Made by a program: the position numbers. Positions 12,001-24,000 of a DNA stretch of 64,000 bases are shown in pieces. Numbering within the stretch: position 1 is the first letter of the stretch; each line of letters starts with the position of its first letter. Location of the stretch: positions 736,001-800,000 of the forward strand of contig CAVSHB010000001.1 in assembly GCA_963727775.1 (NCBI GenBank), written 5' to 3'. Source of the stretch: an uncultured Nitrospiraceae bacterium (GTDB lineage Bacteria; Nitrospirota; Thermodesulfovibrionia; Thermodesulfovibrionales; SM23-35).

Positions 12001-15000
12001 TCCTTTGGGCAGCTATATTTCAAGACGGTTCGAAAACGAGGCAGACAGGTTTGCATGTCAGCTTACCGAAAATGCGGAGGCAATGGCGAGTGCGCTGATA
12101 AAACTCTCAAAAGATAACCTCTCAAATCTCCATCCCCATCCCTTGTATGCAGCGTTTTATTATTCCCATCCGCCTGTTCTGCAGAGGATAAGGAATATAA
12201 GAAAACAATTAAATCTTCACGGAATTTAAAGCCGCTCGAAACTGCGGCTCTATTATTAATAAAATCTGTTTCTGAAAACAGCGCCGTATATTTTTGATTT
12301 TCCAAGACTGATTACGGCCAGGGTATAATTGACGGTTTTCCAAAGGCCTGATCGCATATTTATAAACCTTATTCTGTCTCCTGTAATTTTCTTTTCAATC
12401 ACGCAAACCTTTCCGATAATATTATGTTCTGATACGGGCTCGTCCATGCTCAGGAGGGCGTCGCCTTTTGTTTGAAAGATATGGATATTACTATTAAATC
12501 GTTTTCCGACAATCCTGTGTATTAAAGGCAAGCCGTCATGGGTTTTGAAGAATATCAGGTCTCCTGTCCGCAAAGAACAGGAAGGGACTTTTTGTATGAT
12601 CAGTATTTCTCCTCCCCGCAGGAAAGGGGACATGCTTCTGCCTGTTGCCTTAACGCGGAGACTAAGCCCGCTGTTCAGTATATCTTCAAAAAGCTTAAAT
12701 TCCCGAGGCGCTGATATTTCCGGTTCCAAGATGAAATCCATTTTTCTATCCTGTAATAAATTTTTCGAATAAATCCGCTATTCCGGTATCAGGCTTAAAA
12801 TACAGTTCATATGCAGGAATTCCGGAAGTCAGGTTTTCACACACAACGAGAATATTAGTCATTATTTCCCTGTCATACCATGGTATGGATACAACAGGCA
12901 ATAATTTTTCCAGTGCTTTCTGAGTGCTGATTTCGGATATCCTGTTATAATCACCGTGTGATATGAAAAAAATGCCCGCAAGCGGGACGTTTTTATTGAT
13001 CGCTATTTTTCCTTCTCCCGGCCACGGCGTCCCGAATGCTTTAAAAGCAGTGTCTGTTTTTCTGACGGCAATACGGTCGTCACTGAGAATCTCCAAATAT
13101 TGTAAGGCAGCGAATTGTTTTGACAGAGTGCTTTTGCCTGCCCCCGACTTCCCGGGAAATATATATCCTTTTCCATATACGTTAGCGCCGGCGGCATGGA
13201 CCAGAGCGCCATCTCTGTGAGCTAAAAAATACATAAGTATAATCTGATCAAGAGGATAACAAAAAGGGCTCGAAACCTCAGTATTGTGATTTGTCTTTTT
13301 GATAAGTCTTTCGCCGCAATAAACAGTGATGTCGGTAAAGTTATGATTGGCTCTCGCTAAAAAAAGTGGGTTATTTTCAGCCCCTGTTTGTCTGAACTCG
13401 ATATAATAACCATTGTCATTACGGTACATTGACCATGACTCGCTGCTGTCGAATTCTTTTGAGAGACTGCCGGTCTGAGGGAGATTTCCTAATTCAAGGT
13501 TGATTTTTATATCTGCCGAGAATGTTAGGGGGTCTTTAATGGTTTTTAAAAATGCCTTGTAAGATGGATCATGATAAGGAAGAATAATTGCATCTGTACA
13601 GCGAACGGCAATATTGATGTCGGCAATTTCAAGGTTCATCAAATTTGCCATCTGGTGTTTTTGTCAGAAAAACGGCCGGTCTGTCAAGACCCTTTTTTTG
13701 ATGAACAAACTCCCGTCAGACATCCATTACCGGCAACGTTCGGATCGGAAAACTTTGTTTTACAGCCCACAGCCAGTACTTCTTCCGCAGCCAGTTCTAT
13801 TGCCCTCAGCTTCGGTTTTTCATAGACCTGCGTGCCTTTTTTGTCTTTTTCCTGCTGCATTCTTAACTCCTTATACAACGCCTTTATTGATGAGTTGTAA
13901 CCTGCAACGGCCCATAGAGCAGAGATATTCAGAATAAATATCTTCCGCGCCGTTTTCCCATTTGAAAAAAGCCGGGCAAAAACCACATATGTGGTAACTT
14001 TCACATTTATTGCAACCGGCTATGTTGTCCGTTTTCCTGTCTCTTATGCCTGATATGATACCATACCAGCCTGATTCGAAACTACCCGATGAAAGGTTGT
14101 GTTGTATAAAATTTGTCATAATGCATGGCTGAAGATTGCCGTATGGGTCGATGTGGAATCCGGTGAGCCCCGCTCCGCAGTTGTAAAGCTTATTGTTCGG
14201 TAATTTCTCTTGAGACCTTTGGAAATACTTTACCCATTGCTGTGCTCTTTCAGCATCCAAAAATTCCTTTTCTATGGCCTCCGCTGCTGAAACTCTCAAA
14301 CTAATTGGAGATTTATCGCCGTTTATGCGCGGGAATATTGCAGCGTCAAAACGGAATTTTACGCCGAAGTTTTTTGCTATACCTTCGATATCGAAAAATT
14401 CGTGCCGGTTAAAGGTCATGAGGATAGTTTTCAATCCCACGGGTATTTTTCGTTCCACGAGCTTTGTGATGGCGTTTAAGCATTTTTCATAAGAACCGGG
14501 CACGCCTGTGATTTTTTCGTATGTAGAGGCAGTTGCTCCGTAAAGACTAATCTCAACGAGCTGGGGGGGCATATCCTCAAAAAGTTCAAGTATCCCGTCG
14601 GTGATCAAAGTCCCGTTTGTAAAAACAGTGATAACAAGGCCGCGTTTTTTTGCGTGGCTGTAAATCTCCGGGAAATCCTTCCTCAACAAAGGTTCGCCGC
14701 CTGTGATCAGGAGATAGAGGCATCCAGCTTCGGTAATTTCATCAATGAGGTCCAATATGCGGCCGGCGCTCATCTCATTGTGGTAGTTTATATGGCGCTC
14801 AGAATTGCCGGAAAGATAACAGTGCACACACCTGAGGTTACAGCGGTGGGTCAGATCGATGCTGCCGGAAATAGGTATGCGCAGGCGTTCTGTCTTCTCA
14901 TTAAACGCCCGGATGAAGTCCAGATCACTTTTCCATTTTTCTTCGCATTGCATTCAGTTACTCTCTGATTAACTCTGCTTCCAGAAGCTCGGCAATAAAT

Positions 15001-21000: not shown

Positions 21001-24000
21001 AGACAAGATCTCCGATAGCACCGCCTGTACTCACCGGATCAATCGTTGTTGAGGAGGCAGGAGGAGCTTTTTCGTAACTCGTTGCGGTCGCCGTGTTCAC
21101 GATCCGTGTCTCATTTATAGGATTCTTGGCCTGGACGGTGTATGTTATCGTCATCGTTTCACCGGCAGCTAGGGCAAAGCCGTCGGCAGGCATGACGAGA
21201 TTTGGTGGAACTCCGTTTATCAGGTCAGGATTGCTCCCGCCGGTAATGTTATCTTTGGTTACAGTAACGGGCAGCTCATTTGTTTTTATCGCGACATTAT
21301 CTGCGTAGAAGTAATCGCCGGCATAGCCGTTAGAAACACTGAAACGCACAGTCGTATCCGATCCGATATAAGATGAGATATCATAGCTTTTTGTGCCCGT
21401 AGTCTGTCCGGTAATGTTATTGATAGTATCAATGACTGTGAGGCCGTGCCCGTTCCCGGACATTATTACCTGCACTGCATCTGCGGCAGCAACACTCGGA
21501 CTTGTGCGAAAGTCGAAACTTAATGTTGCGGACGTAAAATTCTGGGCCGGTATCCCTGTTGTCAGGTTTGCAGTTCTGGATGCCCATGATCCGGCGGCTG
21601 TCAGACGCAGCGAACCATTGATTACCTGGACATTCCCCGTCAATGGGTCCTGTGGGTTTCCGGCCGCGTCATTCTCACTCCAGTTTGCAGCCCAATTTTC
21701 CGGACCGTCATTATTGCTGTATAAAAGCTGATTAAATTTTTCCTTGACGAGTTTCTGCCTGTGACCTGTGACAGAAGTGCTGCTTGCAATGTAGTTCGTG
21801 CCGTCAGGTAACGGATCGTTTAACTGAATTCCTGTTTGAGATGTACTTGAAGCATTTGTTACGGTGATAGTGTAAGTAATATTGTCGCCGGGTTTTACTT
21901 TGTTCGGGGCTATACTTGAGGTCTTAAGAGTTTGAAGGACCCCCTGCTGGACAACGGAGTCGCGCGTATTAAGAAAAATCTCTGCCACTGAAGTGACCTT
22001 CGCATTATTGATTATATCGGTAGTGGTAGTGGGGGACAATGGATTATTCACCGTTGCCTGAAAAGTAAATAGTATGTCCTGCCCTGGTTGCAATGTGGAA
22101 GGGATAGGATATCCCGTCTCGTCGAGAGGGAAACGTGTGCCCGACGCATTGTCCGATAAGGCAGAGCCGTCCATAGTGGTTGTATTGGCAACATAGGTAG
22201 TATTCGTGTCGAGCGTGTCCAGGAGGTTGATACTGGATATCGGGACTATGCCGCTGTTATGCACCCTTATTGTATATTCCAATAATTCACCGGGATCTAT
22301 TCCTCCGTTACTGTTAAAGTCTCCTATAAGTTCGGCATATTTATAAGCGACTAAGGAAGGAAACGGCAGCACGGTTGTCCCGAGATCGAGTTCTGTCGGT
22401 TGGTTTGCAGAAGAGCTTCCGCCATCCTGTCCATAGGCAACGGCAATCCTCGTATTGTCGGTTGTATAGACCCTCCAGCCTGTATGATCGTAAGAGCCTG
22501 CAGGACCCGGTGAGAATATCTTTTGAGCTTCCAATGCCTGGACATTGATTGCAACATCGCAGTGGTTGCCTAACGAGTCAAGTATCGGACCGGTTGTGGG
22601 ATCTCCGTCATAGTCCACATAAACTGTAGTGGTGGTAACAGCTGTTACCCATATCGGGTTTGCATCTCTCTGTTTATCGGTAGTTCCAGGAGACCAGCCA
22701 ACGACTGCGGAAGTCGTCAGCGATGTCTCGGGGATCATATTAAAGCCCCAATTATGGACTGTATTGTTTATGTCGATTGCGGCAATCGCATAGAAGCTTT
22801 CACCACCTGTGGTGGTAAGCTTGGCGCCTGTTAAGTTACCTGGCGATGTCGGTGATAAGGGCAATTGAAAGAATCCGGCAGTATGAGCTAAGAGGGTTTG
22901 AGATACGGGACATCCGGCGGTACCTGCCATGCAGGTGACATTCACAGTGATTGAGGCGCTGTTTGGGTTGTAGGCGATTATGTTGTTATATACCATGGTG
23001 CCGCCTGTCTCCCTGGTCGTCGAAACCGGACTGTAGTAAGTGTTTCCCAAATTAGAAATAGGAAGCAAGCTATATAGTCTGCCATCGTATCCTGACGGCG
23101 ATTGTGCAGTTAACATATCGACTTGGACAGGACCGCCTGTAGATGTGACGGTGGCCCCCACTTTTATTCCTTCGACATAGAAGGTCTGGCCCTCATTCAA
23201 CGTCTGTGTGACATTGACGGAAAGGTCCCTGTTTTGCACAGTCACACTTGTGCCGTTCTTCTGCGCCGAAATAGAAAGCGCAGTATAATTGAAAGAGACC
23301 GAACCGTTATTAATTCCAACGGGCACTTCGAAATTGCTTCCCCATTTGTTCGTTTCGAATACCTCAACCGCTCCGGCCATCTGCGCGCCTATTGTCTGTG
23401 GCGCTCCATTCGGCCAGAAAGCACGGGTGACGACGATCTGCTGGGTCGCGCTTATCTTGTCCATGCCGTCATGATATAAGTTGCCCTGGTCACGAATTCC
23501 ATTTGCAACCGGAATATCGTCTGCGAAGGTGATGACCTGACCGGCATTAATGGTAATGACCTGTGTTGTGCTTTGTTGAGGGTTTGTTATGTCATCTTCG
23601 TAGCCATCTTCCCAGTGGTCATAGTAGATGGTTGTGCCGTCATATGTGCCGGTGATCGAGATAACGGAATGTATAGTGTCGGCTTCAGCTGTTGCAGTCT
23701 GCGCCCTCATCCATGTCCTGGCCTGGGGTTCGGTGATAGGGACATAAAACGTCTGGACAATTTGATTGGCTGCTTTAGCGTCGTGCGTACCGTAGAACGC
23801 AAAGATTATCAATGCCGCGACGGCGAAAAGTATTACGCGAAGGTTGATGCCAGGTGAGACATACTGGTCCATCTTTTTCATTTTATCCTCCCAATTAGAG
23901 GGCAAGGAATTATGCGCATGTTAATAGGCCATGATGAGTGCATGGTCATTTCGATTATCAATTTGTTCTGCATAAAATTCTCCCTTCTTTCATCATAATC

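Follow-up and report, generated by a model that had tools for sequence, protein, structure and literature searches.

A radical SAM RiPP cassette coupled to a giant exported protein with a PorU-like module in an uncultured Nitrospiraceae bacterium

The window, which is the whole 64,000-nucleotide stretch of uncultured Nitrospiraceae DNA that was analysed, carries a giant C25 protein to which a conserved radical SAM RiPP cassette is coupled, as the genome-wide survey's note had claimed. We did not find a paper describing this cassette in a literature search. At the least, it represents an uncharacterised radical SAM RiPP family and, by analogy with known pathways, its five small genes may make an undescribed chemically modified peptide. 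We tentatively propose that the modified peptide, linked to a glycan, would be the acceptor to which the PorU-like module of the giant transfers its passenger, giving cell-surface display with a peptide tether. The demonstrated basis of this model is gene content, conserved residues, fold and co-occurrence.

The cassette and its peptide

All six ORFs that the note had placed here were located (12256-23881, minus strand). They form one tight operon, with intergenic gaps of 8, 4, 10, 32 and 4 nt (Table 1). The region upstream of the giant gene and its counterpart on contig C4 are, judging from their similarity, probably a shared promoter region.

Table 1. Features of the cassette and its surroundings in the window.
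Feature	Position	Strand	Remarks
G+C hairpin	12230-12249		Between cassette and converging M48 gene; terminator-like; consensus match only
SpI-like (S26) leader peptidase, 161 aa	12256-12741	-	No membrane anchor seen
HprK-like peptide kinase, 301 aa	12746-13651	-	His152, Lys173, Asp191, Asp192; weak HprK family scores
Precursor gene, 58 aa	13684-13860	-	AGGAG-type RBS
Predicted core, aa 29-58, 30 residues	13684..13776	-	First residue hydrophobic; Cys at +5; two further Cys; terminal Ser
Precursor leader, aa 1-28	13777..13860	-	YxxPxL and invariant Glu27; predicted cut after Val28; register by comparison with LppA
Radical SAM enzyme, 360 aa	13871-14953	-	Seven-Cys SPASM: C259-x17-C277-x36-C314-x2-C317-x5-C323-x2-C326-x18-C345
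Stand-alone RRE (PqqD family), 96 aa	14958-15248	-	PF05402, 56.7 bits
Giant exported protein, 2874 aa	15257-23881	-	Signal peptide, variable passenger, invariant Thr, Fn3-like domain, flexible linker, PorU-like C25 module
PorU-like module, aa 2188-2874	15257..17320	-	NF033707, 250.1 bits (cut-off 420)
Thr1995 junction and seven-stranded Fn3-like domain (about aa 1996-2095)	17597..17899	-	Thr in 98% of 120 giants
Passenger, aa 38-1994	17900..23770	-	DUF11, SdrD_B and DNRLRE repeats; adhesin-like
Probable Sec signal peptide, aa 1-37	23771..23881	-	Judged by eye: basic start, hydrophobic stretch, A-x-A end
Region upstream of the giant gene	23971..24300	-	Matches the sequence ahead of the second giant gene (contig C4) at 81% over 348 columns

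Our repeated profile search agreed with the note that no member of the cassette exceeds any NCBIfam RiPP cut-off and that the precursor is without a match, here in NCBIfam or Pfam. It amends the note in that the S26 peptidase lies over the cut-off of TIGR02228 (archaeal-type signal peptidase I; 57.8 vs. 51.85 bits). The statement that the cassette fits no curated RiPP family stands for NCBIfam and Pfam, but the family of linear polyphosphorylated peptides (LPP; LppA/K/B/S/D/N of Bacillota; Popov et al., 2026, PMC13381572) shares with it the leader logic and three of its four enzymes/adapters.

Tyr13, Pro16, Glu27, exactly three Cys and a terminal Ser occur in all 59 precursor homologues, and 58 end in GS, in line with the conservation described earlier. 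The terminal Ser also recurs in other precursor lineages. A constant leader is followed by a hypervariable core, in which the sequence between the Cys is highly variable, and 32/59 cores are without any Asp or Glu.

The cassette and the LPP clusters share a stand-alone RRE, a YxxP leader, Glu at -2, an HprK-like kinase, a SpI-like leader peptidase whose catalytic Ser/His/Asp are spaced alike in both, an NTP_transf_5 partner and a link to polysaccharide loci. Ser36, His75 and Asp100 of the S26 peptidase are spaced (39, 25) as are Ser29, His68 and Asp93 of LppS. Asn44, Val46, Phe70, Asp80 and Phe84 of the RRE stand at the spacing of LppB Asn33, Val35, Tyr60, Asp70 and Phe74, by a hand count on the numbering of PMC13381572 rather than an alignment. 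Given the match to LPP in catalytic-residue spacing and leader register, a 30-residue core is predicted. We count this match, together with the terminal Ser invariant in 59/59, in favour of the tether. Unlike LPP clusters, the cassette encodes a radical SAM/SPASM enzyme and a precursor with three invariant Cys, is coupled to a PorU-like giant and occurs outside Bacillota. Of the LPP consensus (YxxPxVLxHQxIxFETxxS, phospho-Ser at core +3) it shares only YxxP and Glu -2; its invariant Ser is terminal, as in lasso peptides, and core +3 is not a Ser but Val in 55/59 homologues. The LPP cluster includes an MsbA-like exporter and an NTP transferase, whereas the cassette operon has no exporter and its nucleotidyltransferase lies in trans. 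The terms 'radical', 'SPASM' and 'C25' are absent from the main text of the LPP paper, and according to its Discussion it is unknown what LPPs and paeninodin-type peptides do (PMC13381572).

The phosphorylated lasso peptides paeninodin and pseudomycoidin (PadeK, ThcoK, PsmK, PsmN; PMC9266682, PMC6993621) are also similar in their YxxPxL-type leader, discrete RRE, kinase and C-terminal Ser, the predicted kinase target, which is invariant in the cassette. The His-Lys-Asp-Asp motif of lasso-peptide kinases (PMC9266682) is conserved here at His152 (34/34), Lys173 (34/34), Asp191 (30/34) and Asp192 (29/34). A nucleotidyltransferase is needed for the hexose on phospho-Ser in these peptides, resembling the enzyme found in trans for the cassette. 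Unlike a lasso peptide cluster, the operon, in which all six genes are otherwise identified, is without macrolactam synthetase or B2 peptidase and has a radical SAM enzyme and S26 peptidase instead.

The SPASM domain was compared with Cys motifs from PMC6231123 and PMC10452713. It is a variant with CX2C where the reference motif has CX3C. Its Cys spacing is that of AhbD, with Asp233 (at least 90% conserved) at the position of the eighth Cys of AhbD. The top NCBIfam scores are to the decarboxylases AhbD (124 bits, cut-off 500) and MftC (115 bits, cut-off 265), and the best PDB sequence match is SkfB. Sactipeptide and ranthipeptide maturases (AlbA, SkfB, CteB, PapB; PMC6231123) and CrpC (abstract of PMC13692751) likewise combine a seven-Cys SPASM radical SAM enzyme, an RRE and a Cys-rich substrate. 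In the cassette, however, the RRE is a separate protein, one Cys lies near the start of the core and two near the end, acceptor residues are not conserved, and all model scores fall far under the cut-offs (AlbA 76.5 vs. 850, PapB 64.4 vs. 340 bits).

The NCBIfam SynChlorMet, GeoRSP and HprK-rel-A/B cassettes also join a PqqD-like protein to a radical SAM enzyme, an HprK-related kinase or both. The SynChlorMet scores are far under the cut-offs (bits/cut-off for ScmC, ScmD and ScmE/ScmF: 22.7/125, 29.1/100, 87.9/400, 69.9/400), and there is one radical SAM enzyme only, not two; the term was not found in our literature search. The scores for GeoRSP, HprK-rel-A and HprK-rel-B (72.2/400, 26.3/100, 20.4/200, 14.8/35, 29.4/200) are likewise all far under cut-off.

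The giant protein and its PorU-like module

The C25 domain reported in the note is present, but 'PorU-like module' describes this part better: the module is whole and an invariant Thr precedes it. Among 120 giant homologues there are 20 N-terminal families, and the passenger is, as read from these sequences, the swappable part of the giant. We found no C-terminal anchor on the giant, and in 117/120 homologues the protein ends no more than 20 residues from the catalytic domain. The note had not mentioned a second giant in the same genome (contig C4), which has no precursor behind it. The passengers of the two giants are unrelated, short repeat matches aside.

The top Foldseek match of the module is PorU, the type IX sortase of Porphyromonas gingivalis (PDB 6za2; NF033707; PMC4560394, PMC7468200, PMC8545088), to which it aligns over 553 residues. 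The two are alike in their N-terminal domains and catalytic domain fold, in the His-Cys dyad (His2745 and Cys2780, in 100% of 120 homologues), and in the conserved Thr directly before the C-terminal beta-sandwich of the putative cargo. PorU, which takes peptide amines, cleaves ahead of a C-terminal domain and often does so after a Thr (PMC4560394). A self-cleavage site is predicted at Thr1995, just ahead of the first strand of the Fn3-like domain. The PorU match, the intact dyad, the C-terminal end near the catalytic domain and the chemistry of PorU are all counted for the tether.

The module differs from PorU in being fused in cis to its putative cargo, in falling below the NF033707 cut-off, and in occurring outside Bacteroidota; no paper on PorU-like proteins outside that phylum came up in our literature search. 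The conserved Arg722 of PorU, which stands 32 residues past the catalytic Cys, aligns with Gly2813 (95% Gly, n=120). The beta-sandwich of the putative cargo resembles a generic Fn3-like domain, with matches at Z 7-9; the type IX CTD expected of PorU cargo is not among the matches listed, and the window's copy has no NCBIfam family. TIGR04189 and TIGR04183 (type IX secretion) gave nothing in the genome, and the controls were equally silent.

A nucleotidyltransferase in trans and the distribution of the cassette

A seventh partner, also absent from the note, is encoded in trans. The operon has no NTP_transf_5 nucleotidyltransferase, and the genome's single copy is 167 kb away within a polysaccharide locus. 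In a 301-genome sample, NTP_transf_5 occurs in 33/35 radical-SAM-positive genomes or, with family f25 excluded, in 16/18 cassette genomes vs. 16/226 others. It is in trans in 8/9 genomes of the C25 clade and has polysaccharide genes beside it in 12 of the 14 genomes whose nucleotidyltransferase neighbourhood was read. Wza/Wzc operons adjoin or contain the cassettes of four loci (L003, L107, L108, L118). The PsmN/LppN-type nucleotidyltransferase missing from the cassette lies in trans, mostly in surface-polysaccharide loci. These associations count for the tether, as does the ability of PsmN to put a hexose on a C-terminal phospho-Ser (PMC6993621).

Among 19 near-full-length GTDB loci with radical SAM identity of at least 36% (L001-L018, L044), the RRE, the kinase and a family precursor each occur in 18, at or slightly over the earlier figures; L015 has a divergent precursor. 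Giants with the catalytic domain occur in 14, and two more are cut by contig ends. The spread over several phyla was also recovered, the loci being titled Nitrospirota, Acidobacteriota, Chloroflexota, Lentisphaerota, Rokubacteria, Myxococcota and Pseudomonadota. The cassette stands beside a giant in 33/33 genomes of the window's clade (labels recounted by hand), and G310 has two tandem giants with one precursor behind each. In Acidobacteriota, the PorU-like module is found in 24/25 radical-SAM genomes vs. 57/201 overall. A cassette without the radical SAM enzyme (G288) has a Cys-free precursor candidate, and S26-GNAT fusions were seen only in two C25-less cassettes. We count the patterns in the clade, G310, Acidobacteriota and G288, and that of the fusions, for the tether. 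Against it, genes that co-occur in related genomes or are inherited together as an operon can look functionally coupled when they are not.

Also counted against the tether are the 7/17 close cassettes in the own-phylum sample and the 17 three-rSAM cassettes of family f25 that are without a C25 match, the full PorU-like modules without a kinase match (G354, four copies; G437, G503, G420), and the 9/10 genomes with stand-alone PorU-like genes in which PqqD is absent. The second giant without a precursor, the scores and Cys spacing resembling AhbD/MftC, and the lack of a dedicated peptide exporter in the genome also count against it; the one MsbA-like protein outside the operon is a generic full-length homologue (26-34%).

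A proposed tether and its alternatives

By analogy with LPP and paeninodin, it is very probable that the RRE would bind the YxxPxL leader, the kinase phosphorylate Ser58, and the SpI-like peptidase cut after Glu27-Val28 to give the core. The radical SAM enzyme would, fairly probably, cross-link the three Cys, most likely as thioethers. We lean slightly towards a third step, in which a PsmN/LppN-type nucleotidyltransferase of a surface-polysaccharide operon would link the phospho-Ser to a sugar; the peptide, thus joined, would leave the cell together with the polysaccharide. The weakest step, possible but short of probable, follows PorU: after Sec export of the giant, the module would cut after Thr1995 and the acyl-enzyme would be resolved by the free N-terminus of the peptide, fixing the passenger to the glycan. 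The acceptors of PorU mirror its own cut site (PMC4560394). A test of such mimicry, in which residues after Thr1995 were compared with the core N-terminus locus by locus, failed (P1' 2/26, P2' 6/26), and this and the Gly in place of Arg722 weigh against the tether. In its full form, which we consider doubtful, the cassette would be an undescribed anchoring system in which a thioether-bridged ribosomal peptide is a covalent cross-bridge, with its N-terminus in an amide to the giant adhesin, self-cleaved by a PorU-like transpeptidase in cis, and its C-terminal Ser in a phosphodiester to a surface polysaccharide.

It is unlikely, though the failed mimicry test favours it, that peptide and giant are built in parallel. 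The cross-linked, phosphorylated peptide would be attached to the polysaccharide and itself form part of the matrix, and the giant would process itself with another acceptor (an aminoacyl sugar, as in PorU) or by hydrolysis, the genes travelling together solely via the shared surface layer. C25-less cassettes keep the polysaccharide link, one of them (G181, same family) sits at the window's M48-TraB-NYN-PAP2 site, and cassette-free modules exist. Against this, the C25 gene stays within the operon at differing positions (it precedes the RRE here, follows the kinase in L015 and L018, and in G172 and G288 separates the kinase from S26), each giant of G310 has its precursor, the two giants of L014 each have their own precursor family, and cassette-free genomes number 0/33 in the clade.

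The one-to-one pairing of genes and the loss of Arg722 would also suit a peptide that is held, cross-linked and glycan-bound, by the C-terminal module of the giant as a docking tag, latency peptide or small subunit, without transpeptidation. In clostridial loci, too, a Cys-rich YxxP precursor with a final Ser comes directly after an unrelated giant that lacks C25, so that pairing is independent of this protease. We rate such a non-covalent partner as improbable; against it, the dyad (120/120) and the junction Thr (98%) are so conserved as to suggest catalysis at the Thr site, and the core between the Cys is highly variable. A freely secreted signal or antimicrobial, a thioether-bridged phosphopeptide that the C25 module trims, activates or degrades outside the cell, has a similarly small likelihood. 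The hypervariable core on a constant leader, the patchy distribution, and the MsbA-like ABC exporters adjoining several distant cassettes fit it, but the cassette has no exporter or immunity gene and the genome no dedicated exporter. Furthermore, S26 already fills the role of leader peptidase, the nucleotidyltransferase tracks the cassette from inside polysaccharide loci, and a swappable passenger of 2000 residues is left unexplained. Lastly, a tether in which the radical SAM enzyme acts as an oxidative decarboxylase of the AhbD/MftC kind on the terminal (phospho)Ser, with the Cys as disulfides or metal ligands, would fit the AhbD-like scores, spacing and Asp233 and the cores without Asp or Glu, but is very improbable. 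Against it are the scores far under the cut-offs, the Cys-rich cores that track the radical SAM enzyme (the candidate of G288, which lacks that enzyme, is Cys-free), and the set of seven Cys, with which one site stays open as it does in CteB and AlbA, both thioether-forming.

The cassette unites two questions, the role of LPP/paeninodin-type peptides and that of PorU-like proteins outside Bacteroidota, and it names the reagents: a 58-residue substrate with a predicted cut site, four enzymes and one in trans, and a predicted self-cleavage at Thr1995. If the tether model is true, a RiPP would have the structural role of joining protein to glycan, and a new peptide ligase would be available. If the cross-bridge reading is true, phosphorylated or glycosylated lasso peptides and the LPPs of capsule loci may be envelope components rather than free metabolites.

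Composition and standing of the cassette

All six genes of the cassette are minus-strand and in tandem, separated by gaps of 8, 4, 10, 32 and 4 nt, and a hairpin is located 3′ of the last gene. Promoter-like sites were at chance level (19 seen, 19.5 expected). The genome-wide survey's note had stated that no RiPP family exceeds its cut-off, and NCBIfam and Pfam searches bore this out, with the precursor lacking any match. The S26 peptidase exceeds the cut-off of the archaeal-type signal peptidase model (NCBIfam), and the 2874-aa exported protein, hereafter the giant, is above the Pfam C25 cut-off and below that of PorU (250 vs. 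420 bits). Against PDB sequences, the kinase and the RRE gave weak or P-loop matches only, and the LppB structure was absent among them. The ESM Atlas lists 30 unnamed clusters resembling the precursor. The genome encodes a single precursor, a single kinase of this type and a single S26 of this type. The cassette had also been described as conserved, and 19 near-full-length GTDB loci (radical SAM identity of at least 36%) agree: the RRE, the kinase and a family precursor are each found in 18/19, and the giant or a contig-end piece of it in 16/19.

The cassette is real and is undescribed in the literature searched. It resembles the tailoring pathway of linear polyphosphorylated peptides (LPP) and paeninodin with an added radical SAM step, and the C-terminal module of the giant resembles PorU in fold. 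Judged by their defining features, it belongs with none of LPP, lasso peptides, PorU, SynChlorMet or GeoRSP. The terms "Radical", "SPASM" and "C25" are absent from the main text of the LPP paper (Popov et al., 2026; PMC13381572), and in the six supplements searched Peptidase_C25 and Radical_SAM occur only as headings in a neighbourhood matrix of 834 columns. We found no paper describing the cassette in a literature that excludes subscription papers and bioRxiv supplements. That it is categorically new is somewhat unlikely.

Precursor, leader cleavage and the radical SAM enzyme

The conserved leader and three Cys reported for 59 precursor homologues were recovered by our precursor search, which returned all 59 candidates. 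All of them share Tyr13, Pro16, Glu27, Leu29 and Gly-Cys-Lys, contain three Cys, no more and no fewer, and end in Ser. The LPP peptidase LppS is RRE-dependent, uses Ser29/His68/Asp93 and cuts after Phe-Glu-Thr (PMC13381572); Ser36/His75/Asp100 of the window S26 have identical spacing. With the Tyr of YxxP as position 1, positions 15 and 16 are Glu and Thr in LppA (PMC13381572) and Glu and Val in the window family; related precursor families have Glu, Asp or Gln at 15 followed by a small residue. The first Cys is at position 21 in 59/59 homologues and in most locus precursors. Because the Glu is in register with that of LppA and the first Cys is fixed at 21, the core is predicted from sequence to be residues 29-58. 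Cleavage after Ala30 or Gly32, as in the canonical A-x-A rule, was set aside, since Pro, His, Trp or Asp occur there in related precursors while Glu 15 and Cys 21 stay in ungapped register. LPP are phosphorylated on a Ser at core +3 (PMC13381572), whereas the window precursor has Val there and the invariant Ser is terminal, as in paeninodin. The window kinase shares the His-Lys-Asp-Asp motif of paeninodin kinases (PMC9266682). At one locus (L001), a second, near-identical precursor gene directly precedes the giant gene.

Seven SPASM Cys are invariant across 20 aligned radical SAM sequences. With seven such Cys, the first auxiliary cluster of CteB keeps an open site, and the same is proposed for AlbA (PMC6231123). 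The spacing in AhbD includes an eighth Cys (PMC10452713); that of the window enzyme is the same minus the eighth. Thioether cross-links on Cys are favoured because Cys-rich cores accompany the radical SAM enzyme, and genome G288, whose cassette has no such enzyme, has a Cys-free precursor candidate. Neither Asp nor Glu is present in 32 of the 59 cores, so that no fixed acceptor is seen. The top-scoring NCBIfam models for the window enzyme are AhbD and MftC; decarboxylase chemistry is regarded as highly improbable.

The giant protein and its coupling to the cassette

The last 885 residues of the giant match 690 proteins of 1580-5030 aa among 7999 scored. In the best 120 of the 690, the Fn3-like domain and the His-Cys dyad are universal and the boundary Thr is present in 98%; 117 stop no more than 20 residues past the catalytic domain, and the N-termini form 20 families. 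Where separate genes encode cargo and protease, the boundary Thr is still retained. A second giant in the same genome (see table) shares its final 2629 nt, a stretch that begins near the Thr and runs to the stop, with the first at 98.4% DNA identity. The upstream regions are 81% alike and the passengers are unrelated, a pattern that resembles exchange of passengers at the Thr junction. An RRE site of the YxxP type on the giant's own N-terminus was rejected, since neither the second giant nor any other N-terminus inspected shows one.

The AlphaFold model (pLDDT 77) has PorU as its top Foldseek match (E 5e-30; 553 residues aligned), and its catalytic domain is best matched by gingipains (Z 37). 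The Thr is directly ahead of the first strand of a seven-stranded, generically Fn3-like domain (pLDDT 88), and no type IX CTD is among the fold matches listed for this domain. PorU cleaves ahead of a terminal domain of that type, in many cases after Thr, and attaches the cargo to an amine; its acceptors are a seryl or glycyl sugar of A-LPS and, if A-LPS is missing, peptides from the medium (PMC4560394; PMC7468200; PMC8545088). PorU Arg722, whose role comes from a single source (PMC4560394), aligns with Gly2813 of the giant, which argues against identity with PorU. Stand-alone PorU-like genes (L060, L061, L063-L067, L121, L015), some of which begin like lipoproteins or end in Gly-Cys membrane tails, adjoin separate proteins bearing the Thr and Fn3-like domain. 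They are possibly a general sorting system outside Bacteroidota.

From the protease side, 20/301 genomes of the same phylum match. Nine have the full module, and in 9/9 the cassette is beside a copy. The other eleven have the stand-alone form, which in G288 is inside its cassette; nine of the remaining ten lack PqqD. From the cassette side, the giant or its end is adjacent in 10/17 close radical SAM loci, with no match in 7/17. In the phylum of locus L007 (titled Acidobacteriota; 201 genomes), the module is in 57 genomes and the radical SAM enzyme, scoring ≥380 bits, in 25; 24 of these 25 have the module, 17 of them within ~12 kb. A quick tree of 64 catalytic domains places the window protein in a clade of 38 rows. 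These represent 33 genomes (counted by hand), and in 33/33 at least one giant has radical SAM or kinase genes as neighbours; 20 of the 33 came via the protease query alone, which was built from linked proteins and took top loci only. Outside this clade, among 10 genomes tested, a kinase match was absent in G354 (four full modules), G437, G503 and G420. Thus, the coupling is strict in the clade, and neither cassette nor module requires the other everywhere. In G310, each of two tandem giants has a precursor of its own behind it, from a second family, and the radical SAM enzyme is a more distant one; G320 and G344 are alike. L014 has two giants and two precursor families.

The genes flanking the cassette are the same as those around a C25-less cassette in G181 (L106). 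The latter is of another sub-family with all genes in one direction, and the window cassette is inverted; together these suggest replacement at one site. Elsewhere in the window, two frames of 475 and 429 aa, transposase-like by their translation, overlap each other upstream of a sigma-70 gene. In clostridial loci (L033, L028, L030, L034-L037, L039-L042), a different giant surface protein, free of C25 and with a shared C-terminal region of ~600 aa, is paired with a kinase, an RRE, a radical SAM enzyme, an unassigned protein of 230-270 aa and a Cys-rich YxxP precursor whose last residue is Ser. The shared region showed no homology to the PorU-like module (hhalign probability 0.1), and the Atlas gave only a weak CE2_N lead.

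Coordinates of features discussed in the text (G000 is the genome of the window)
Feature	Coordinates	Remarks
Second giant	L046:6756-14630 = G000:C4:136755-144629	2624 aa; same C-terminal module; no cassette behind
Cassette of G288 without radical SAM	L114:8669-15451	PqqD, Cys-free precursor candidate, kinase, Propeptide_C25 protein, stand-alone C25, S26, NTP_transf_5
Only NTP_transf_5 gene of G000	L048:9453-10613 = G000:C1:581452-582612	167 kb from cassette
Wzc/Wza/beta-barrel/O-antigen-ligase genes	G000:C1:171-182 kb	
Cassette flanks	window 10898-12229, 24219-26736	M48, TraB, NYN, PAP2
Transposase-like frames	window 6242-8874	
Sigma-70 gene	window 9218-10666	
Second precursor gene	L001:555-731	
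Clostridial locus	L033:544-7364	
S26 in one frame with another domain	L182:2550-4175, L017:13176-16178, L109:11214-12716	Wza-type export domain (two genomes) or NTP_transf_5 (one)
S26-GNAT fusions	L106:6420-7418, L108:6751-7788	C25-less cassettes

A nucleotidyltransferase in trans and a possible peptide tether

LPP and pseudomycoidin clusters include an NTP_transf_5 protein, and PsmN is required for the hexoses on the C-terminal phospho-Ser (PMC6993621). The only such gene in the window's genome follows a sugar transferase and a sugar epimerase and closes a polysaccharide locus of >35 kb. The family occurs in 76 of the 301 genomes of the phylum and the radical SAM clade in 35, with 33 having both. 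Without f25, a family with a three-radical-SAM version of the cassette in which NTP_transf_5 is common, it is found in 16/18 cassette genomes vs. 16/226 others, a count rather than a test, as kin are not independent. In the window's sub-clade it is in 8/9 genomes, in every case on a different contig or 29 kb or more distant. The neighbourhood of the nucleotidyltransferase was inspected in 14 genomes: in 12 it adjoins genes for a glycosyltransferase, a sugar transferase, an epimerase or Wzc, and in G287 and G304 it is inside a second kinase-RRE cassette. Relatives have the cassette beside or within a Wza/Wzc operon (L003, L107, L108, L118). In the window's genome, the Wzc, Wza, beta-barrel and O-antigen-ligase genes that flank the cassette in relatives sit apart. 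The S26 shares a single open frame with a Wza-type polysaccharide export domain in two genomes and with NTP_transf_5 in one. The f25 loci (L115, L116, L093-L105; 17 genomes) have an adjacent NTP_transf_5 and no C25 match; the two inspected completely additionally carry S26 and an ABC transporter.

The simplest account employing every part is a tether. The peptide, with no signal sequence or dedicated exporter, would be bridged and phosphorylated on its last Ser. The nucleotidyltransferase, acting in trans, would join it to a polysaccharide pathway, and the leader would be removed. The anchorless exported giant would cut itself at the Thr via its PorU-like module, and the freed peptide amine would be the acceptor. 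A GNAT fused to S26, as in two C25-less cassettes (two cases only), would cap the same amine; this fusion was not seen on the long S26 frames checked. We put the whole chain forward tentatively, as less likely than not. The acceptor step is the weakest, because a mimicry test failed, Arg722 is missing and both halves are found alone. The consensus after Thr1995 (Leu 56%, Val/Ala 94%) made mimicry by the core N-terminus look plausible; locus by locus, P1′ agreed in 2/26 and P2′ in 6/26 pairs (two junctions mis-parsed), and mimicry was rejected.

Parallel surface roles, in which peptide and giant act side by side and which the separate occurrence of the two halves favours, are unlikely. Non-covalent binding of the peptide by the giant is improbable; a complex prediction of the module with precursor residues 27-58 (score 0.02, mark 0.32) speaks neither for nor against binding. 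A free secreted RiPP is equally improbable, and a search of the whole genome for a dedicated LppD-like exporter found none. On the tether account, which we favour with due caution, the peptide would be a glycan-linked acceptor for the passenger of the giant.
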